From the IMG/VR virus record IMGVR_UViG_3300044628_000447, positions 1 to 52,743 of that record: a stretch of 52,743 bases of DNA; one strand, written 5' to 3'. Below are positions 4,963 through 52,228 of this stretch, piece by piece. The DNA comes from a virus. Its lineage: Duplodnaviria; Caudoviricetes. Numbering within the stretch: the stretch's first letter is position 1; the number at the start of each line of letters is the position of its first letter. The position numbers and the translations under genes are program-made. The notes below the pieces were generated by a model. That model saw only the letters and a list, made by a program, of their open reading frames with translations. It made no database searches and had not been told where the DNA came from.

Positions 4963-6192
4963 TTATTCTTCTAGTTTACTGATTTCACCGTTCATCTTTA
5001 CCGAAAAGGACACATTCCTTGGCCCTCTACGATTCTTGTCAATGTATATGCAGGACTTGTCATCCTTGTGCTTAATGTGGATTACCGCATTTGAGTGCTG
5101 CTTGATTGCGCGGGACTCGCGTAGCTTCCCTTCATCATTCAACTGACTGCCAGTTATCACAGGAGCCTTGATTCTTGTGGCGAGGTTCTTGAGCTTCCTA
5201 GCAATATCGGAGACTGTCTGTTCGCGGGACTCGCTGGTTTCGTTCTCCACGATCTGGATATAGTCAACGATTACCACATCTGCTTTTCCAAGGAGGGATA
5301 GTCTCTGTGATTCCGCGATTATGGAGTCTAGGTCAAGAATATCGTCAACGATAGTCAGTGGCATGTCTCTGATTTCCAAGATTGCCTTACTGATTTTTGG
5401 AATCTCCCTTGAATAAATTGTCCGGTATTCTTCCGCAGCCCGAACCGGGATACCAGCATAGGATGCAACGAATCGCTCCAAGATGTCTGTCTTATCCATC
5501 TCAAGTGAGAAGTAAGCTACGCTTTTGTTTTCAAGAATATTAGCTAAACCAGCTTGAACCATGTAGATAGACTTACCACCACCCGATTCAGAGGCTACTG
5601 TCAATAGTTCCCCTTCGTGCAGCCCACCTTTCATCTTGCTATCGAGGTTGACTAATCCCGTCTTATACTTCGTTCTCTCTTGAGCCCCCTCCATCTGGTC
5701 GATAAGCTGCCCAGCGATTTCCTTCACGCTTGATAGGTTTGGCGATTTATCATTCTGACTAGTGGCAATCTTATCGGCTATGTCCTTCAAATCCGCCTTG
5801 GCAAGCTGGATGTCCCTCCTGTTATCCTCGATGATCTTGAGCGTGTCTCGGTATCCCTTGTAGCGGATTAGGTCTTTCCGATAATCGTTGGCCATCTCGA
5901 TTACTATGTCAGATGGTTTCATTTTGTGAGCTGAGAGAATGTCATATACTGCATTCTCCCCACCGATGATTTCTAGCTTCCCGTTTTTGGATAGTTCTGC
6001 AATGGCTGAGAACTCGCTTGTGTCCCCTGTCCGCTGGTATGTATCTCGGAGAGCTTCAAAGACGGTTCTATGGGCATCTATGGCGAAATAATCCACATCC
6101 CAGATTTGTGTAGCTAGGATGTTTGGGTTGCTTGCGATCAGAGATAGTGCTCCCACTTCTCCGAGGTGGAATATTGGTGTGTCTGTGTTCAT
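4963..6192 (-). CDS. dnaB: DnaB-like replicative helicase
   Basis: Walker A ASESGGGKS, YFSLEM, Walker B VIVDYIQ, SQLN, LRESRAI, KNRRG. Confidence 0.92.
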   Translation of the reverse strand: MNTDTPIFHLGEVGALSLIASNPNILATQIWDVDYFAIDAHRTVFEALRDTYQRTGDTSEFSAIAELSKNGKLEIIGGENAVYDILSAHKMKPSDIVIEMANDYRKDLIRYKGYRDTLKIIEDNRRDIQLAKADLKDIADKIATSQNDKSPNLSSVKEIAGQLIDQMEGAQERTKYKTGLVNLDSKMKGGLHEGELLTVASESGGGKSIYMVQAGLANILENKSVAYFSLEMDKTDILERFVASYAGIPVRAAEEYRTIYSREIPKISKAILEIRDMPLTIVDDILDLDSIIAESQRLSLLGKADVVIVDYIQIVENETSESREQTVSDIARKLKNLATRIKAPVITGSQLNDEGKLRESRAIKQHSNAVIHIKHKDDKSCIYIDKNRRGPRNVSFSVKMNGEISKLEE

Positions 6193-6211
6193 TGGTTATC
6201 GGTTCCGATAA

Positions 6212-7099
6212 TTAGAGGTTTGGCTTTACGGTTGACCAATCTATCTCTTCAAAGGATTGGTTTGTTTGTTGGGGTTTCTTTTGGTTGGATACCCACTCTG
6301 CTTTGAATCCTCTCCAACCACGGAGGACACATTCACGAAGCGCATCTTCCAGCGGCCAACCCGCCTTCTGTGCTTCTGACTTGATAATGTTTAGAACCGC
6401 TGGAGTAATCTTGGCTTTCTTTTCCTTGCGGATGTCGCAGAACGCTTCCCAAGTTTGCTCGGTAATCCCGTCTGGCTTTGGGGGGGGAACGATCGATTTT
6501 CGCAACCCTTGTGTCTTCATGGAACGGGGGGGTCTTGAATCAGAAGCTTTAGCTTCGCTTGCTTGTGCGGTAGCACGCTGACTTTCGTTGGTGTTGAAAA
6601 AGTCATTTGTGGAAGACGAAGCCTCTGCTGAGTTTTCCACGCCTATTTGCATTTCTATACCATTACTAGGTATTTCATTTACTATTCCTAGGTATTTGTC
6701 TGAGGTTTTTCCACAGTGTAGGTTTTCCGTAGTGTGGAAAACCCCTAGGGTGGCTGACTGTGCAAACCGAACTTCTACATACCACTTCTCCACTCTGCCA
6801 CCCTCCCCCTTTCTAACAACATCATCAATAAAACCAGCACTCTTGAGTTGTTTTTTGGCATGAGAAAACCTATCTCTTCCCCACCCAAGACCATTCATTG
6901 CGTATTCAGATGTCGCAAATACAGAACTATTCTGCTGCCACTTTCTTGTGTAGCAGTAGAAAGTGTAAAGAGCCAAGCAGTCTCCGGGGTTTTCCATCTT
7001 CAGAATCCTATCCACTGATGGTTTTGTTAATCCAACCAGATAATCTTCTGGCAATCCAGATGCCATCGTTTCGCATCTTTCGTATATCGTTACGTCCAT
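6212..7099 (-). CDS. Phage replication initiator (lambda O / replisome-organiser-like); probable start MDVTIYER
   Basis: Directly upstream of dnaB; wHTH-like N-terminus; C-terminal W..F...RK.KK...T...GW.G motif; internal repeats. Confidence 0.75.
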   Translation of the reverse strand: MDVTIYERCETMASGLPEDYLVGLTKPSVDRILKMENPGDCLALYTFYCYTRKWQQNSSVFATSEYAMNGLGWGRDRFSHAKKQLKSAGFIDDVVRKGEGGRVEKWYVEVRFAQSATLGVFHTTENLHCGKTSDKYLGIVNEIPSNGIEMQIGVENSAEASSSTNDFFNTNESQRATAQASEAKASDSRPPRSMKTQGLRKSIVPPPKPDGITEQTWEAFCDIRKEKKAKITPAVLNIIKSEAQKAGWPLEDALRECVLRGWRGFKAEWVSNQKKPQQTNQSFEEIDWSTVKPNL

Positions 7100-7232
7100 A
7101 AAAAAAGGCGACCCCTTGTAGTGGCGGACAAAAGCGGCAACTGACGCATGAGAGTGGTGAAACCACCACAAGGGATCATATATTTTATTTGTTTATTTAA
7201 TTTTGTCCTTCACATCGGCTCTCACCCCGATG
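7100..7232 (-). ncRNA. Putative cis-regulatory kissing-loop RNA, copy 1 (leader of replication initiator)
   Basis: 6-bp hairpin (7213-7232) and 15-bp stem (7110-7124/7163-7177); G-U pairs form only on the minus strand; loop complementary to 7148-7154. Confidence 0.65.
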
Positions 7233-7282
7233 GCAGAGATTGCTCCCTACGCCAACCATCCTAGAAATCGACACCTACCGTG

Positions 7283-7672
7283 TCAATACTTTATTTCAAT
7301 TTTTTCTTTCCCTCCACTAGTCCACAGAGGAAGATCGTCTAAAAGGTTATCCCACACTTCGTTGCATTCCTCTGATGTTGGCATCTCGATAATGGAAATC
7401 TTTTTATCAAGAGTAGCCTCCTTCTCATCCACCCTGCACTCTAGGAAGTAAATCTTGCTGACATTTTCCATGAGAACGAAGATCACAGCTTCCCCGTTTG
7501 GTTTTACGCCAAGGGTAATGAAAGGCCCGTCTTCATCGCAAGTCTCGTAGTGAACAACCAGACCCTCACCCAGAATCTTAGACAGAGCTAGATTGGATAT
7601 GAGGACGGAAGCCTGCATTGATGTGAGGATGTAGGTGGAAATTTGGTCTACGAGTTCTTTTGCGTTGTCCAT
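7283..7672 (-). CDS. Hypothetical protein
   Basis: 129 aa, first gene of the leftward operon. Confidence 0.7.
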   Translation of the reverse strand: MDNAKELVDQISTYILTSMQASVLISNLALSKILGEGLVVHYETCDEDGPFITLGVKPNGEAVIFVLMENVSKIYFLECRVDEKEATLDKKISIIEMPTSEECNEVWDNLLDDLPLWTSGGKEKIEIKY

Positions 7673-7728
7673 TATCGATACCGATAATCTGAGTTCATGC
7701 TTGACCTGTCAACAAAAGTTTGTAGACT
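7672..7728. promoter_or_regulatory. Divergent control region: palindrome 7672..7687 plus rightward promoter TTGACC-N14-TG-TAGACT (7701..7728)
   Basis: Motifs read directly between divergent genes; a leftward TTGACA lies at 7707..7712. Confidence 0.6.
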
Positions 7729-7739
7729 AATCACAGGAA

Positions 7740-8051
7740 ATGAGACTAGACCACCCACTGATTGGCGCATACGAAGCCTGCATGTCAACCTACGAAGAGT
7801 CAAAAAGGTTGAAGCAGTCTGGTAGGTTTGTGTTTGCCAAACAGCTTAAAGAGACAAGGGCAATGCTCGGTCTAACTTGCAGGCAGCTTGGAGGGTCAAT
7901 CGGGGTTACAGGACAACTTATCAGCCAAATTGAAACAACTGCCAAAAGTATCTTGAACCGAGATCAAGTCCAAAAAATTGTAGAACTATGCTCAAACGCA
8001 AAACACCCCTCCGCGCCAAATCTGGATTCAAAAAGCGAGGCGGGAAATTAA
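7740..8051 (+). CDS. XRE-family helix-turn-helix regulator
   Basis: LKETRAMLGLTCRQLGGSIGVTGQLISQIE matches the HTH_3 pattern. Confidence 0.8.
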   Translation: MRLDHPLIGAYEACMSTYEESKRLKQSGRFVFAKQLKETRAMLGLTCRQLGGSIGVTGQLISQIETTAKSILNRDQVQKIVELCSNAKHPSAPNLDSKSEAGN

Positions 8052-8302
8052 ACGCAGTCAGCGATAGGCGTAAGGAGCTAAACAAAGAATATGCATCAGT
8101 CCGTAGAGAGTATCTGCTATCAAGCTCAAGGTGTGAAGTCTGCGGGGGAGAAGCTACGGACATACATCACAAAAGTAAAAGGGGTAAGAACCTATCTAAC
8201 AAAGATACGTTCATGGCTGTTTGCCGCCAGTGTCATACCAACATCCACGACAATCCAGCGTGGGCAAGAGAAAAAGGATATTTGATTTATGAATATAAAT
8301 GA
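7988..8302 (+). CDS. Small HNH endonuclease
   Basis: CEVCG...DIHH...N...VCRQCHTNIH. Confidence 0.85.
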   Translation: MLKRKTPLRAKSGFKKRGGKLNAVSDRRKELNKEYASVRREYLLSSSRCEVCGGEATDIHHKSKRGKNLSNKDTFMAVCRQCHTNIHDNPAWAREKGYLIYEYK

Positions 8303-9166: not shown

Positions 9167-11974
9167 TCATTCGCCCCAGTCATCAGTAGCATAATCTTCC
9201 TCATCAGCAACTAACGCAGGCTTTTCATCTCTTGACCAAAACCTATTAGTTGGAACAGCTTTATCGGTTCCGATAAAAACAAGTCCGTTCTTTCTAGCGA
9301 TTTCTAAGGCGTATACAAATGAATCCGCGCAATTATCTACAAGGATTCCATTAGCATAATATACATTATCATTTTCGAGGACCAAGTTTAATACCCTTGC
9401 GTCCCTTGTTTCTTTTGATGATCGCACAACTTTTGGAGCAGCAAACGCGCTTCCTGTAAGGATCGCCGTTAAAATCTTTACCACATTCAGCACATTTATA
9501 GGTAACTGTTTTATACTTTTCACGATTTGCATTTTGGAAACAAGCCCCGCTACAATACTTGGATTTTGTTTTGTTTTGTGTGATGACTGGTTTTCCGCAT
9601 TGCTTGCAAGACCCATCAAACTTTTCACGTTTGAGAATGCTGTTGTATGCATGATTTCTATGCCACTCTCTTCCTTCTTCTGATGAGTGCCACTCTTTTG
9701 CCGCCTCTTGAGCAAGCTTAAGAGACTCCAAATTCCTTGCGTAATAATGTTGGTCTTTGAATCTTTCTTGCATATGCATCCGCATGTGTTCGGCTTTTGA
9801 AAGAAGCTCCATATTTTCAATTCTGTTATCAGTCCAATCGCCATTCTTGTGATGGATTTCAAGGCCATCAGGAATAGGCCCGTTGTGCTCAATCCAAATG
9901 ACTCGATGTAGAAGTCTCTCGCCCGTAGCCTTGTTCCAGTCTTGATAATATCGACCCGTTGTTTGAATGCCGTATTTGCGTCCGTTGTGAATAATGAATT
10001 TAGGATGTTCCATACAATTAGTCTTTCTTCAGACTCTATTGTATATGCGCCCGAAAGGTTGTCAAGCCTGACCCATCCATCTTCCCATGTAAAAACACGA
10101 TGTTTTCCTTTTCCTTCAAGAACTCTTCCATCACTAAATTCTACTTTGCATATTTCGTTGTGAATTTCATCATGGATAAAAGAAATTTTTGTTACACCAA
10201 AAGGAGTAATCACTTCATCTCCGGGCGTTAGATTTTCAATCTTTACTTGACCTTTTGGAGTCAAAATCAATGTTCCCTCAACAAAACAGTCTGGCGAGTA
10301 TCCAATTCGCGCCTTAAAATCATTCTTAGTCTCAATAGAAATCTTGCGAGTCTTTAGAGTATACCTTCTAAGGCAAAGCTCTCTACCAAGCTCGCTGGCA
10401 TAATCAATTCCCCATATCGTTCTACTTTTGAATCCGTGATAGGCAGAATAGTGGAACTCGGATACAAGACGATCATAAACATCCTTACATGGACGCTTAT
10501 CCACATCCGCCGCGATACGGTCAGTCGGCCTACCCATAGAAGAGATTAGAACAATACTATGTCCATTTTGGTCATACTTTAGCCACTCTCTGATAATAGC
10601 CTGCCCAACCCTACCGCCATCACCGGACACGTCCATACCAAATCTCTTTGGCTCAACACCAGCTTCTCGGCAGATACGGACAACTTCAGTAGCAAGTTGG
10701 TTCTCAAATTCAGCAGTCTCTCTAGCGGAAAGCTGGATAACGTGCTGTTTCTCCATAAACATTACTTTGTTTTGAGTCCCGCGAACATATCCAAGTTTGG
10801 CTATTGTAAGCACGCACCTATCGCCTCCAGCGGTAAATGCAGTATCAAATCCCGCTACTTTGGTTAATCCCTCTGAAGACCACAATGGTTCATCTGCGGT
10901 GTTGGCGTTACGTATCAAGTCGCTAGTAAGAATGGTCTGAGCAAAGCCAGCCTTTGGCCACCAGCCAATAGCGTTACGAACATAGTCAACAGCATTCTCA
11001 TCACCGTAGCACTGCCGCAACATCTGAGCCTGCTTTGTCCTATCCATTAGGAACGGGAATGGTGGAGGCTCATTAGATGGTGCTTGAAAGTTTGGCGAAC
11101 GCATGCCGTTATAGAACAAGCAAACGCCTGTCTCGGTTTCCCACTTGTCCATGTCCATTGACACGCTTTCAAAGTTAGCCTGCCCTCTTGGAAGACACCA
11201 ACGTGTATGCGGATTGTCACCAGAAGATGGGTTGCCGATACCGATAAACACCTTATCGTCGTTAGAAGAAAGGTTGACTTTACTTGTCAACGCACCCATC
11301 TCCATTTCTGGCAACTCATCAAGGGCCAATCGAATCCTACTGTTCTTACGACCACGGGTTGTGTCAATAGCCTTCTGTCCTTCGTTACCTTGAGGGAATG
11401 CCAGAGCTTTAATAGCGTTACTGTAGTCCTTTTGGTCTCCACCGTCTCCACCTCCCCATACGATCATGTGGCGGTAGTCCATTAGGTTTCCAATCTTAAT
11501 CCGCGAACACTTCCATAGCTTTGAGATGATACCCCAGATACGATCCTCGGACGCACCGATAGTCGTAGTGGCAACCCAAGAAGATGTGCAGGTAGGAGCG
11601 GAACACCAATCAAGAAGAATCCAAAGACCAACAGGAAACGACTTACCCATAGATGCGGCTCCAGCAAGAACCACGTCATCATTATTGCAAAGCTCTTCAA
11701 TAGTTCTAAGAAGCTGAGTATTCATGTAGCCTCTTGATTTTATAGACACATCGTTAGGCCACTGAAATTGAACTGCTTTAATAAAATGCTCGAATGGAGT
11801 CAGTAACTTAAAGTCGCCTAGATCAATATTATTCTTAATGCAATAAGTTCGGCCATACTGACCACGGGTTATTGAGTAGCAGAACAATTCAATACTCAAA
11901 TCGTCCATTGTGTCTGGAAAAGCCATCCCGTATTTATTGATCGTTTTCTTGCTTGACATAATTCCATTTAACAA
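9167..11974 (-). CDS. terL: Terminase large subunit with intein
   Basis: Walker A GAASMGKS, Walker B LALDE, GNP coupling motif, RNase H-like GFDTA..GGD and SPD|CAD; true start may be ATG 11959. Confidence 0.9.
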   Translation of the reverse strand: MLNGIMSSKKTINKYGMAFPDTMDDLSIELFCYSITRGQYGRTYCIKNNIDLGDFKLLTPFEHFIKAVQFQWPNDVSIKSRGYMNTQLLRTIEELCNNDDVVLAGAASMGKSFPVGLWILLDWCSAPTCTSSWVATTTIGASEDRIWGIISKLWKCSRIKIGNLMDYRHMIVWGGGDGGDQKDYSNAIKALAFPQGNEGQKAIDTTRGRKNSRIRLALDELPEMEMGALTSKVNLSSNDDKVFIGIGNPSSGDNPHTRWCLPRGQANFESVSMDMDKWETETGVCLFYNGMRSPNFQAPSNEPPPFPFLMDRTKQAQMLRQCYGDENAVDYVRNAIGWWPKAGFAQTILTSDLIRNANTADEPLWSSEGLTKVAGFDTAFTAGGDRCVLTIAKLGYVRGTQNKVMFMEKQHVIQLSARETAEFENQLATEVVRICREAGVEPKRFGMDVSGDGGRVGQAIIREWLKYDQNGHSIVLISSMGRPTDRIAADVDKRPCKDVYDRLVSEFHYSAYHGFKSRTIWGIDYASELGRELCLRRYTLKTRKISIETKNDFKARIGYSPDCFVEGTLILTPKGQVKIENLTPGDEVITPFGVTKISFIHDEIHNEICKVEFSDGRVLEGKGKHRVFTWEDGWVRLDNLSGAYTIESEERLIVWNILNSLFTTDANTAFKQRVDIIKTGTRLRARDFYIESFGLSTTGLFLMALKSITRMAIGLITELKIWSFFQKPNTCGCICKKDSKTNIITQGIWSLLSLLKRRQKSGTHQKKEESGIEIMHTTAFSNVKSLMGLASNAENQSSHKTKQNPSIVAGLVSKMQIVKSIKQLPINVLNVVKILTAILTGSAFAAPKVVRSSKETRDARVLNLVLENDNVYYANGILVDNCADSFVYALEIARKNGLVFIGTDKAVPTNRFWSRDEKPALVADEEDYATDDWGE
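9332..10288 (-). mobile_element. Intein (319 aa) in the TerL nuclease motif
   Basis: Block A CFVEGTLILT, block B KGKHRVF, C-terminal YYANGILVDN followed by extein Cys+1. Confidence 0.9.
9369..10013 (-). CDS. HNH homing endonuclease nested out of frame inside the intein
   Basis: LHRVIW..HNGPIP.GLEIHHKNG...DNRIENMELLS..EH (HNH_3-like) plus CxxC...CSxxC Zn fingers; -1 frame relative to TerL. Confidence 0.88.
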   Translation of the reverse strand: MEHPKFIIHNGRKYGIQTTGRYYQDWNKATGERLLHRVIWIEHNGPIPDGLEIHHKNGDWTDNRIENMELLSKAEHMRMHMQERFKDQHYYARNLESLKLAQEAAKEWHSSEEGREWHRNHAYNSILKREKFDGSCKQCGKPVITQNKTKSKYCSGACFQNANREKYKTVTYKCAECGKDFNGDPYRKRVCCSKSCAIIKRNKGRKGIKLGPRK

Positions 11975-12369: not shown

Positions 12370-12400
12370 CTAACTCATTATCGTTTACGATAACTATACA

Positions 12401-18464: not shown

Positions 18465-18492
18465 TTATCGTAACCGATAAAGAATTTTAATT

Positions 18493-23991: not shown

Positions 23992-25155
<1,164 letters not shown>

Positions 25156-30244: not shown

Positions 30245-30259
30245 TTATCGGAATCGATA

Positions 30260-44876: not shown

Positions 44877-45635
44877 TTAAAATAAAACTAGGGTGTCCAG
44901 CTTCTTGTCTGATTTTGAAAGATTATCCTTTGCCCAAAGAGGACGAAGGTTGCGATAATGATTAAGCCTAATTATCTCATCTTCTGTTTTTTCCATGGAA
45001 ACAGGCATGATATGGTCAATGTGCCATAGGTTGCGATTATCCCAAGACATTCCATCAACGAACTGAGATTCGATGTGAGATTTAAATTCTTCAAACGAAC
45101 AACCAAGAATATCGGCTGTTTTAGTATTCTTTCTGAATCCCATTTTTTGCAACGAGTTTTTTATGTTATTATGAATAAGCATTCTACATGCAAATAATGG
45201 ATCTTTTTTCATTCTATCATTTCTAGAATCATAAATTTTCTTTTTATTTGACTGAAAATATTTTTTACCACTGTTAGGATTTTTTAGCCTCCATTTTCTA
45301 GTTTGATCTCTGCCTCTTTCTGGATTCTTCCAATAATATCTTTTAGATGCGGCTCTTTGTTTTATTTTTATATTTTCAAATATTTCTTTCGTAACCCACC
45401 TTTCACCATTTGCATAACTTTGACAATAACACAAAAAAATCATTCCATCTTCCCTAGTATCTCCGCTCCTTCTAACTCCATTTATTTTTTTCGCATTAAA
45501 TACTTTATTGATTCTATCTGATTTATTTTTTTTGAAATCATGTTCTGTCATCCATTTTTCACCATTCTTGCAATCAGGATGGTATCCCCAAAACACCATT
45601 CCATCTTCTCTAATTGTTCCACGTTTTATTTTCAT
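44877..45635 (-). CDS. Free-standing HNH homing-type endonuclease (start MKIKRG)
   Basis: GCS.EEFK.HIESQF..GMSWDN...WHIDHI.P...NHY.NL.PLWA.DNLSK; two REDGM.F repeats; AT-rich. Confidence 0.85.
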   Translation of the reverse strand: MKIKRGTIREDGMVFWGYHPDCKNGEKWMTEHDFKKNKSDRINKVFNAKKINGVRRSGDTREDGMIFLCYCQSYANGERWVTKEIFENIKIKQRAASKRYYWKNPERGRDQTRKWRLKNPNSGKKYFQSNKKKIYDSRNDRMKKDPLFACRMLIHNNIKNSLQKMGFRKNTKTADILGCSFEEFKSHIESQFVDGMSWDNRNLWHIDHIMPVSMEKTEDEIIRLNHYRNLRPLWAKDNLSKSDKKLDTLVLF

Positions 45636-45760
45636 ATATAAAAGGACGCCCCCGCATGGCCACAAGACTGTCTGAATGACAGGTGAAACCTTTACCATGC
45701 AAGGGCGGTATATTTATAGTTCAAATTTAATCTTACGTTAATCGGGGTTTCACGCCGATT
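45636..45760 (-). ncRNA. Putative cis-regulatory kissing-loop RNA, copy 2 (leader of HNH gene)
   Basis: 6-bp hairpin (45740-45760) and 14-bp stem (45647-60/45694-707) with G-U pairs on the minus strand; loop complementary to 45683-45690. Confidence 0.65.
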
Positions 45761-45785: not shown

Positions 45786-47423
45786 TTACTGCAAGATATT
45801 TTTTGTGGAGATAGCTAAAGAAATTGATGGGTCACATTCCCCATCCATGAGTAAATCCATGCGTTTTATCTTCTTATCCAATGAATTACAAGTATCCTCC
45901 TCAATCGGAACTCCAGCCGCATACACGATGTATTGCAGACTTTTTGTGACGCCTCCCGCCCTGTGAACCCTTCCTAGAACTTGACGAAGATCGTATGCGC
46001 TTGGTTGAGGAAATATCAAAGAAACTCTTGGATGCTTCCCGTTCAAGTCATGGAGTGAAATTCCCTCCCTACATGCGGCAGAAATTCCAATTATCACACG
46101 GGCCTTGTCTCTCTGGAAAGAATCAATTGCTCCCTGCCTTTCCATTTTAGATTGACCTCCGCAAATTACTGCATCGGTATTTAGCTCTTTCATCAAGAAC
46201 TCCATTGTTTCACGGAAAGATACCGCTATGAATATACTATTTCCTTCTTCAAGATAATCCTTTGCCAATGAAGCAACTGAAGGCGATTTCAACAATTCTA
46301 TTTTTTGCCTTGCTCGTGTTTGTTCTGCTAAAACATTCGCACTAAAGTTTTCAGCGTGTCGCAGTTCTTCAACTCGCAGGCATAGATCATCATATTCTGA
46401 AGCAATGGCGCGAGTGTTTTCCATGTCAAAGGCTCTTGCGGCTATTAAAGTATCTGGAAATTGATCACCTAAATCAGAATGCCTTAGTCGATTCCCTCTC
46501 TCTGGATAAATTTTATGGTGAAGCCGTTTTAAGTAGTGATTGCCTCCTTGGAACTGAAAACCAAATCTTGTTTTTTTGCAACCATTAGAAGATAAAAACC
46601 TATAGTAATCTTTGCCTCCTTGGTGTAATCCAAGAAATTGGCCCAAGGCCCAAAGTTTTGTTGGATCATCTGCTATAGTTGCGCTCAAGGCTATTGCTTG
46701 AACGTCTTGAACAACGCTATCCCTTATTAGAAATGAGTTTTGGGAAGTCCCATTTGCTTTTCCGCGATGGCATTCGTCAAATATAAGTATAACATCATTA
46801 GGTATTTCATAAATAAACTTTTTCTTTTCAGAGCAAGACCATTTCCCTATTTTTGACTTTCCTGTTTTACAAAATTCCCAACCAACCGCTTCATATATTT
46901 CAACATTCATCGTTTTTGCGGCCCTATACCATGAAGTAACTACTGCAAGCGGACAAATTACAGCAACCCGCTTTCCTAACTCCCGCGCAATGCCGAGGGC
47001 GCAGAATGTTTTGCCGACACCCGTAGAATGACCCAAAAGCACCCGATTGTATTTCTGGATACTACGCACGCCGAGAGCCACTGATGTTTTCTGATACTCA
47101 AAGAGGACGGAATCATTGATAAGCGGAGGCAGCACAATTTCCTCGGCTGGCTCGTTATCGGAGTCGATAACATTGTCTAAAGGAACGTGCTTGAACTTGA
47201 GATCAGAATCACTCCACCAAGTCAGCGTCCACTCGCCACTGTATTTAGAAATAGAGATACCCGCATCTCGCATGGTTTGACGGTGAAATTCTTGATTCTC
47301 TTTGTAAAGCGGCCACCAATCAGAATCGATGGGAGCCTTTTTAAGCAGGCGGACACCGTTCTTGGTATTAAGCTGGATAGGATGAGACCACTCCAGCCGA
47401 GAGATAAGCTCGTGCGTTGTCAT
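45786..47423 (-). CDS. Superfamily 2 helicase
   Basis: HSTGVGKT, IFDECH, LSAT, EGISL, QVLGRVHRAG. Confidence 0.9.
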   Translation of the reverse strand: MTTHELISRLEWSHPIQLNTKNGVRLLKKAPIDSDWWPLYKENQEFHRQTMRDAGISISKYSGEWTLTWWSDSDLKFKHVPLDNVIDSDNEPAEEIVLPPLINDSVLFEYQKTSVALGVRSIQKYNRVLLGHSTGVGKTFCALGIARELGKRVAVICPLAVVTSWYRAAKTMNVEIYEAVGWEFCKTGKSKIGKWSCSEKKKFIYEIPNDVILIFDECHRGKANGTSQNSFLIRDSVVQDVQAIALSATIADDPTKLWALGQFLGLHQGGKDYYRFLSSNGCKKTRFGFQFQGGNHYLKRLHHKIYPERGNRLRHSDLGDQFPDTLIAARAFDMENTRAIASEYDDLCLRVEELRHAENFSANVLAEQTRARQKIELLKSPSVASLAKDYLEEGNSIFIAVSFRETMEFLMKELNTDAVICGGQSKMERQGAIDSFQRDKARVIIGISAACREGISLHDLNGKHPRVSLIFPQPSAYDLRQVLGRVHRAGGVTKSLQYIVYAAGVPIEEDTCNSLDKKIKRMDLLMDGECDPSISLAISTKNILQ

Positions 47424-51925: not shown

Positions 51926-52228
51926 TTACTCTTTGATAAAGATTCCCTCTGGAGTGAGGGTTCCTTTTCGGTCTTTAATCTCATTATATGCGGACTCCAT
52001 GCAGTCTGTTATCTTGATTCCGCGAAGTTCGCAGTAGTTAATCAGACATACCATTACATCTCCAACAGCATCGATAATATCATCGATTTTGCATTTCGCG
52101 TGTCCGTCTGCCAACTCTCCTGCCTCTGAGAAGAATTTAAATAGCTGCATTGAAGGGGTAGCGTTAGGGATGATTTGCCTGTCTTTTGCCCAATTAATGA
52201 TCTTTTCTTCTAGTTCTTCGTATTTCAT
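51926..52228 (-). CDS. MazG-like nucleotide pyrophosphohydrolase
   Basis: WAKDR, K..SEAGELAD, DAVGD, AYNEIKDRKG. Confidence 0.85.
   Translation of the reverse strand: MKYEELEEKIINWAKDRQIIPNATPSMQLFKFFSEAGELADGHAKCKIDDIIDAVGDVMVCLINYCELRGIKITDCMESAYNEIKDRKGTLTPEGIFIKE

Follow-up and report, generated by a model that had tools for sequence, protein, structure and literature searches.

A family of structured leader RNAs ahead of replication genes, and of an HNH nuclease gene, in lake-water phages

In the immunity system of satellite phage P4, a temperate element, the CI RNA, a processed RNA acting in trans, pairs with the seqA and seqC sequences in the leader of the replication operon, with premature termination of transcription. 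Plasmids of the I-complex (repZ of IncI1 ColIb-P9 and repA of IncB pMU720) have rep leaders in which a hairpin loop pairs with a distant strand, and this pairing bears on translation of the initiator (PMC8053102). In T-even phages, stable hairpins at the starts of homing-endonuclease genes (those for I-TevI, -II and -III, segB, and mobE of Aeh1) are thought to restrain translation, and the hairpin of seg43(25) of Aeromonas phage 25 lies just upstream of the ribosome site and does not cover it (PMC2988022). The pistol ribozyme, often found near phage genes, has three stems and a pseudoknot between P1 and P3 that joins the P1 loop to the P2/P3 junction (PMC6154101), and a conserved A-triplet in its P1-P2 joiner docks into the P1 minor groove (PMC6101554). 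We describe here a leader element that is present twice in the IMG/VR virus record IMGVR_UViG_3300044628_000447, once before the replication genes (copy 1) and once before an HNH nuclease gene (copy 2). The window, by which we mean the whole stretch of 52,743 bp that was analysed, is marked as a complete virus record by direct terminal repeats; it is labelled G000, and related records carry other G labels.

Sequence comparison confirms copy 2, which a preliminary description had put forward as a kissing-loop RNA leader, as a real folded RNA leader and as a side branch of a family that Rfam does not match, and places it among predicted cis-acting 5' leader RNAs of about 150 nt in lake-water phages of about 50 kb. 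The layout first reported for the minus strand (45760-45636) matches the sequence letter for letter. The P2 arms CGCCCUUGCAUGGU (45707-45694) and GCCAUGCGGGGGCG (45660-45647) form 14 pairs, three of them G-U, and the target GGUUUCAC (45690-45683) inside P2 is a perfect 8-nt Watson-Crick complement of the loop bases GUGAAACC. As had also been stated, the two copies differ in loop and target and keep the pairing (GUGAGAG/CUCUCAU in copy 1, GUGAAACC/GGUUUCAC in copy 2); an inner hairpin, P3, and a window-specific AU-rich prolongation of P1 by about 20 bp had been missed (Table 1). For the 134-nt copy 2 leader the folding energy is -40.5 kcal/mol (z = -3.43), which none of 200 shuffles equals, and with the AU-rich upstream extension z is -6.81, again with 0 of 200 shuffles. 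A Watson-Crick run of at least eight between the loop and the P2 interior arises in 164 of 200,000 shuffles. Three further phage records contain orthologs of copy 2 in which the letters have changed but P1, P2, P3 and the pairing of loop and target are retained.

Table 1. Positions of the two leaders, their parts and selected genes in the window
Feature	Position	Strand	Details
Copy 2 hairpin P1	45740..45760	minus	AAUCGG-CGUGAAACC-CCGAUU; 6-bp stem, 9-nt loop CGUGAAACC at 45754-45746; aligned by covariance models R1 and R2
Copy 2 linker	45708..45739	minus	32 nt, A/U-rich; contains family-invariant UUAAAU (45730-45725), invariance over 36 members
Copy 2 stem P2 with interior	45647..45707	minus	33-nt interior; compensatory changes among four HNH-linked copies
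Copy 2 inner hairpin P3	45682-45668	minus	adjoins the target
Copy 2 junction UCUUGUG	45667-45661	minus	in the P2 interior after P3
Copy 2 tail UCCUUUUAUAU	45636..45646	minus	11 nt from P2 to the start codon (AUG at 45635-45633)
AU-rich helix prolonging copy 2 P1	45716..45785	minus	about 20 bp, from just after the helicase stop codon; minimum free energy fold
HNH / endonuclease VII-like gene	44877..45635	minus	252 aa from AUG 45635; phrog_1035, E 8.3e-12; HNH C-terminus kept in the alignment
SNF2/ResIII-type helicase gene	45786..47423	minus	upstream of copy 2
Copy 1 promoter	7258..7286	minus	TTGACA-17-TAGGAT, 10 of 12 matches; promoter conserved here in relatives
Copy 1 leader	7100..7251	minus	R1 match, 155.1 bits, E 3e-27
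Copy 1 P0	7250-7233	minus	GNRA hairpin
Copy 1 P1	7232-7213	minus	loop GGUGAGAG
Copy 1 linker UUAAAU	7200-7195	minus	
Copy 1 P2 arms	7178-7162 / 7125-7109	minus	
Copy 1 target CUCUCAU	7154-7148	minus	
Copy 1 P3	7147-7134	minus	
Copy 1 tail		minus	CC, then U7
Replication initiation O-like gene	6212..7099	minus	first gene behind copy 1; phrog_678, E 2.1e-25
DnaB gene	4963-6192	minus	next after the O-like initiator; DnaB_C, E 1.7e-35
Cyanophage-type auxiliary genes (glycosyltransferase, ferredoxin-like, MazG-like)	1308-2423, 2420-2965, 51926-52228	minus	

A pattern drawn from both copies led to one related phage, G001, which shares 26 blocks of 65-90% DNA identity with the window and carries both leader copies; single-protein searches returned no relatives of the initiator or of the helicase, and a query with a helicase alignment returned 32 related loci. 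Covariance model R1 was built from 19 leaders (alignment A5) and R2 is a broader model, both run at default filters that very divergent forms could escape. By BLAST and R1 a copy-1-type leader is present in 26 of 33 records and, where completeness is 90% or more, in all 16, and in each of these 16 near-complete relatives it heads the replication module as one copy behind a TTGACA/TAnnnT promoter. The second copy occurs among the 33 records only in G000, G001, G008 and G030, the same set being given by R2; a weak third R2 match is seen in G020 (24.7 bits, E 0.008). A further pattern scan added 11 more divergent members, here called B-type, and the copy-1 core occurs in 102 IMG/VR viral contigs, with all 80 that were fetched confirmed by R2. 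Scanning of 185,579 prokaryote genomes gave 13 pattern matches and one true leader by R2; the contig L199 (51,842 bases), binned in a 'Candidatus Woesearchaeota' metagenome-assembled genome, has a full copy-1-type leader at 794-944 (117 bits), and because it is probably a mis-binned phage contig it offers no host information. The GenBank phage collection contains no DNA match to either leader, Rfam 15 (4227 families) gives no match anywhere on the window at gathering score, and three leaders searched against Rfam at E-values up to 10 gave chance-level matches only, none of them on the sense strand.

The fold emerges from the family without guidance. RNAalifold applied to the 19 leaders of A5 returns P0, P1, P2 and P3 with compensatory changes in 16 of 33 pairs, P0 being a 6-bp stem with a GNRA loop and P2 a helix of 17 pairs in this consensus. 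When the loop-target helix is included, 97.5% of the cells of A5 are paired (slid controls, at most 49.3%) and both sides change at 21 of 40 pairs. Among 65 distinct sequences 98.6% of cells are paired and none of 500 shuffles reaches the observed values; the pseudoknot helix alone is 96.7% paired, with both-side changes at five of its seven pairs, in an alignment that was made by a model without the pseudoknot. Loop and target form at least seven contiguous pairs in 35 of 36 diverse members and five in the remaining one, and in the 35 the target strand abuts P3 directly (33 members) or lies one base off (two); since the kiss directly abuts P3, P1, the kiss and P3 can stack. Eight loop types are represented: GUGAGAG, GUGAAGG, GUAGGAG, GUAGGAA, GUGAAGAA, GUGGAAA, GUGAGAA and GUGAAACC. 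P2 ranges from 14 to 17 bp and the linker from 32 to 45 nt, and the distance from the end of P2 to the AUG is 9-12 nt in every member of the 36-member set, whatever the first gene; P0 is absent from two of the four HNH-linked copies. A pairing of the 5' A-rich flank with the U-rich tail in the copy 2 fold was set aside as low-complexity and impossible in B types.

G-U pairs are tolerated on the sense strand only, and U-G can be invariant, as at pair 81/153 (65 of 65 sequences). Because the G-U pairs are confined to that strand, the element works as RNA, and this strand specificity together with the covarying loop-target helix bears out the earlier assignment of copy 2 to the RNA level. A DNA-level element, whether a replication origin, an operator or a recombination site, might be suspected from the position directly upstream of the initiator and DnaB genes and from the AT-rich stretch between inverted repeats. 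However, G-U is allowed on the sense strand alone, the covarying loop and target lie about 60 nt apart and are not symmetric in duplex DNA, the HNH gene is also preceded by a leader, and different initiator families stand behind the same leader, all of which makes a DNA-level role extremely improbable.

Several unpaired bases are invariant over the 36 members, namely the UAAAU of the linker, an AUAU that precedes P2, CA.U within the loop of P3 and the CUU that follows P3. GCC after P2 is likewise invariant except for UCC in two HNH-linked copies, and the top three P1 pairs are constant in the copy-1 type. One alternative reading of the family is a pistol-like self-cleaving ribozyme, in which the mRNA would have its 5' end processed by a cut in the junction that follows P3. 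The topology is as described for pistol (PMC6154101), the leader loop pairing with 7-8 nt just before P3 in 35 of 36 members, and the A-rich conserved joiner and phage association are shared (PMC6154101, PMC6101554); the invariant UAAAU in the joiner and the invariant top P1 pairs can also be set against the pistol A-triplet (PMC6101554). However, UAAAU sits within a joiner of 32-45 nt as compared with 7 nt in pistol, P2 measures 14-17 bp, the 3' junction has 7-9 nt where pistol has a short G-U cleavage junction of fixed length, and a P2 of that length would hold cleavage products together. Pistol has its catalytic G40 directly after the pseudoknot strand; at this position copy-1 types carry G and the B and HNH-linked types carry C, such that the catalytic G is not conserved. 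The Pistol model RF02679 (threshold 34.5 bits), searched at E-values up to 10, matches nothing in five genomes (G000, G001, G011, G028 and G030, eight leaders), nor is it among the chance-level Rfam matches of the three leaders. We regard self-cleavage as very unlikely.

The association of the leader with its promoter is constant, while the genes behind it are not. Across the family the promoter is of the host type, TTGAC-N16/17-TAnnnT, and the leader follows directly. The first open reading frames (ORFs) behind leaders (n = 116, duplicates included, as some contigs stand in both alignments) fall into five single-linkage clusters: O-like or DnaD-like initiators (63 members), small proteins of 93-104 aa (40), proteins of about 90 aa (7), HNH proteins (4) and a cluster of no known class (2). 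These tabulated genes, mostly replication initiators with the HNH gene in addition, agree with the proposal that a nuclease and an initiator stand behind the leaders. Loop type does not follow the first gene, GUGAGAG preceding at least six different N-termini, and the copy 1 leader of G001 is an island of 80.6% identity with a gene behind it that differs from the window initiator, of which G001 has no homolog. With one leader type ahead of at least five unrelated first-gene clusters, the term portable module used in the preliminary description is justified.

The reading we favor, with a probability of about 0.5, is that the leader is a clamp acting in cis that gates translation of the first gene, with termination of transcription in addition in those members that have a U-tract. 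The transcript would start at the host-type promoter, and the leader would fold into a fixed, compact structure in the order of an optional GNRA hairpin (P0), P1, the A-rich linker with UAAAU, and the P2 clamp, with a strand of 7-8 nt inside P2 pairing with the P1 loop and abutting P3. P2 would bury the sole G-rich run resembling a Shine-Dalgarno sequence, initiation of translation on the first gene (in most cases that of a replication initiator, in copy 2 that of the HNH nuclease) would be held low, and the gate may also cap the 5' end of the mRNA. In members with CC and four to seven U after P2, as in 76 of 80 copy-1-type members, part of the transcripts would probably be stopped; in window copy 2, P2 is followed by UCC and then U4. 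The G-run in the 3' arm of P2 is invariant in the family, and a Shine-Dalgarno-like 4-mer is found 4-13 nt before the start codon in only nine of 48 window genes. A constant helix with a G-rich arm 9-12 nt before the AUG, in a genome whose genes mostly have no Shine-Dalgarno site, favors a translational gate. Structure, conservation, promoter linkage and modularity are what the sequences show; that the leader gates translation and termination, and does so as a throttle rather than an activator, we infer from them. The earlier proposal that the element limits expression is plausible on this view.

Several observations weigh against this reading. Taken alone, the folding energy of copy 1 is unexceptional (z = -1.78, with 11 of 200 shuffles as good), and the G-run lies 11-16 nt from the AUG, a long spacing for a Shine-Dalgarno site, and in a phage that rarely uses one. 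At least four U within 9 nt after P2 are present in just 23 of 36 diverse members, and because the U-tract is missing from 13 of 36, termination cannot be the function of the whole family. No conserved alternative pairing that might act as a switch is apparent on inspection of the 36-member alignment, a throttle would need no more than a simple hairpin, and the invariant single-stranded bases suggest a partner or a chemistry beyond the clamp. Because these bases and the elaborate kiss are left unexplained by a throttle, the sensor, trans-acting RNA and ribozyme readings stay alive. We note that the terminator scan was confined to loops of at most 8 nt, and P2 with its U-tract therefore falls outside its calls. 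In some copy-1 types a local hairpin resembling an antiterminator competes for the upper 5' arm; this was rejected as not conserved, and it is impossible in B types, where the gap between arm and target is 1-3 nt.

A sensor RNA is the first of these, with a fold that binds a small molecule, as in a riboswitch, or a phage or host protein, and thereby decides expression of the first gene; the protein forms of this reading include a translational operator and an RNA that modifies RNA polymerase, such as a put-like antiterminator. The unpaired bases that stay invariant in 36 members despite about 54% identity between subgroups speak for such a sensor, as do the top three P1 pairs that never vary in the copy-1 type, the GNRA loop of P0 near the 5' end and the unvarying position right behind the promoter. 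However, the downstream genes are non-metabolic and no ligand or protein candidate presents itself, the 36-member alignment has no conserved alternative helix of the kind found in expression platforms, P0 is missing from half of the four HNH-linked copies, and no Rfam riboswitch model matches. We consider a sensor unlikely.

Pairing between molecules is a further possibility, in which loop and target would set the specificity of recognition between terminated leader RNAs, or between a leader and an antisense RNA, of the same or a co-infecting phage, with P4 CI and seqA/seqC and the Inc RNA as analogues. Eight loop/target types within otherwise conserved leaders, types that differ between the two copies in all four two-copy genomes, and a terminator-like stem with U-tract in 76 of 80 copy-1 types that could free an RNA of about 150 nt are consistent with this. 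Promoter-like hexamers also stand on the opposite strand of both window leaders (45692-45720 and 7157-7184, plus strand, 9 of 12 matches each), although such sites occur in neither of two relatives scanned and no terminator follows those of the window. The loop has its partner in cis, at a fixed site abutting P3 in 35 of 36 members, and there is no Rfam match at gathering score on the window; the Rfam library presumably holds a P1/P4 antisense RNA model. The cross-talk between copy 2 and copy 1 that had been suggested earlier belongs to this reading, and one part of it stands, in that GGUUUCAC is present in copy 1 (7164-7157, three of its eight bases within the P2 5' arm). The site is, however, not conserved, being found in just three of 19 copy-1-type leaders (G000, G029 and G014) and in one of four two-copy genomes, and its occurrence in copy 1 is most simply a matter of chance. 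We judge recognition in trans quite unlikely. The leader shares with P4 the presence of complementary short strands in one constitutively transcribed leader ahead of replication genes and of specificity variants between relatives, but its pairing is satisfied in cis and no lysogeny genes are seen in the window. A PHROGs scan of 49 window ORFs found neither integrase nor repressor, which makes a role in immunity unlikely.

Returning to the clamp reading, the nearest functional analogues are the rep leaders of the I-complex plasmids and the endonuclease hairpins of the T-even phages, the former having defining features that the leader lacks. Like these plasmid leaders it is a leader of replication-initiator genes in which a hairpin loop and a distant strand pair with each other (PMC8053102). 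It differs from them in that its target lies in the open P2 interior, 45-50 nt before the AUG and not beside the ribosome site, and is unpaired in the consensus fold. Such plasmid leaders are marked by a leader peptide, whose translation opens the stem and lets the pseudoknot form beside the rep ribosome site, and by an antisense RNA gene, with promoter and terminator, across the first hairpin. The phage leader does not have a conserved leader peptide or a conserved antisense promoter or terminator, antisense hairpins are not followed by a U-tract, and there is no sequence relation between the two. An ORF of 19 codons (MRQLPLLSATTRGRLFLWT, 7090-7149, minus strand) does start at the end of the copy 1 target and end 7 nt past the initiator AUG; it was rejected as a leader peptide, since its AUG is kept in only 10 of 19 aligned copy-1-type leaders and is absent throughout the B and HNH-linked types. 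In-frame upstream extensions of the two genes (from TTG 7171 and ATG 45698) were likewise rejected, as G001 does not retain them and the frame is disrupted by indels inside P2.

With the T-even hairpins the leader shares a very stable structure directly before a free-standing nuclease gene. Those, however, are simple hairpins that hide a canonical Shine-Dalgarno sequence, with an internal late promoter as a bypass (PMC2988022), whereas the leader has four helices and a pseudoknot, its own promoter, and an origin as a structure borrowed from replication-gene leaders. A possible counterpart to a sequestered ribosome site is the invariant G-run of the P2 3' arm, 11-16 nt from the AUG, in a window where nine of 48 genes have Shine-Dalgarno-like words. 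No conserved internal promoter was found in the leader. A sigma-70 promoter in the linker, with hexamers matching at 9 of 12 positions in copy 1, was discarded since members of the family differ by 10-14 nt in how far apart the conserved motifs lie, and TATAAATA in the copy 2 linker, which we take to resemble the T4 late promoter consensus, is missing from the other three HNH-linked copies and was discarded as well.

The four HNH-linked leaders are all of type GUGAAACC/GGUUUCAC, different from that of the resident copy 1 in each genome. They are 63-76% identical to one another, with an average identity of 49-62% to B types and of 48-53% to copy-1 types, and because window copy 2 has 54% aligned identity to its own copy 1 as against 63-76% among the HNH-linked copies, copy 2 did not arise from copy 1 by recent duplication. 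The cassette of G008 and G030 consists of a promoter (TTGACC-16-TATCTT), a mini-P0, the leader and the HNH gene, at the same intergenic site and facing the helicase gene, and in G001 a TTGACA-16-TATCTT promoter overlaps with the helicase gene at its end. Window copy 2 has only a weak counterpart (TTGCAG-17-TAACTT), so that read-through out of the helicase gene may be of importance. On such read-through transcripts the AU-rich helix that prolongs P1 would, as modelled, pair with the conserved linker motif; this extension is absent from copy-1-type leaders and has a partial counterpart in G001 seen by eye.

That the leader travels with the mobile HNH gene was correct to the extent that the cassette is present in four records, in both orientations at one locus, but the link is not obligate. 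The expectation that HNH homologs would all bear the element does not hold, since the closest homolog, in G002 (71% aa identity), is without a leader and starts 31 nt after the helicase stop codon. Among the best 80 of at least 570 HNH-homolog loci in IMG/VR, R1 or R2 found a leader only at G001.

The leader is a new family of a known kind, that of structured cis-regulatory leaders of replication genes, and full-text literature searches returned no description of such a phage leader. It may bear on the timing and dosing of replication initiators in uncultured phages, being a well-supported structured RNA, unmatched in Rfam, that stands before them. It marks a mosaic boundary at which promoter and leader stay constant and initiator genes are swapped, and it has been recruited by a mobile nuclease cassette. 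The eight covarying loop/target codes provide a test bed for RNA tertiary pairing, and if function follows them they could be used as orthogonal parts for expression control. A bolder proposal, which we hold to be rather improbable, is that the leader belongs to a lineage of widespread phage 'replication-gate' RNAs that have an active chemistry, such as that of a ribozyme, or serve as a tag of self and non-self, and that homing-endonuclease cassettes have captured; were the identity-tag form true, the eight codes would constitute an incompatibility system among co-infecting lytic phages.

The gene set of the window is that of a tailed phage, with a terminase that probably contains an intein, tail fibres, an endolysin and RusA, besides DnaB and the O-like initiator. 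Window DNA is found in public sequencing runs of lake-water metagenomes, and among the 22 runs listed there is no RNA run that contains it. The cyanophage-type auxiliary genes hint at a cyanobacterial host, and judging from gene content the likeliest source is a lytic cyanophage, the host group being a prediction; the carriers of the leader family are probably cyanophages too. The glycosyltransferase of the window is 72% identical to its counterpart in Synechococcus phage S-CAM7. An ORF of 935 aa (9167-11974, minus strand) matches large terminase within residues 561-896 only, has a Hint (intein) domain at 563-592, and is probably a terminase that is fused or contains an intein. A second, small HNH-like ORF (7988-8302, plus strand; phrog_740, E 1.9e-11) lies on the opposite strand near the copy 1 promoter region. 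The palindrome TATCG-N4-CGATA has 20 sites in the window as against 0.01 expected, among them 6197-6210, 7673-7686, 12379-12392, 18466-18479, 24003-24016 and 30246-30259. Many of the sites lie just 5' of start codons, and relatives have one at about 10 nt upstream of the -35 motif of the leader promoter; the palindrome may be the operator of a phage regulator, or a small RNA hairpin.

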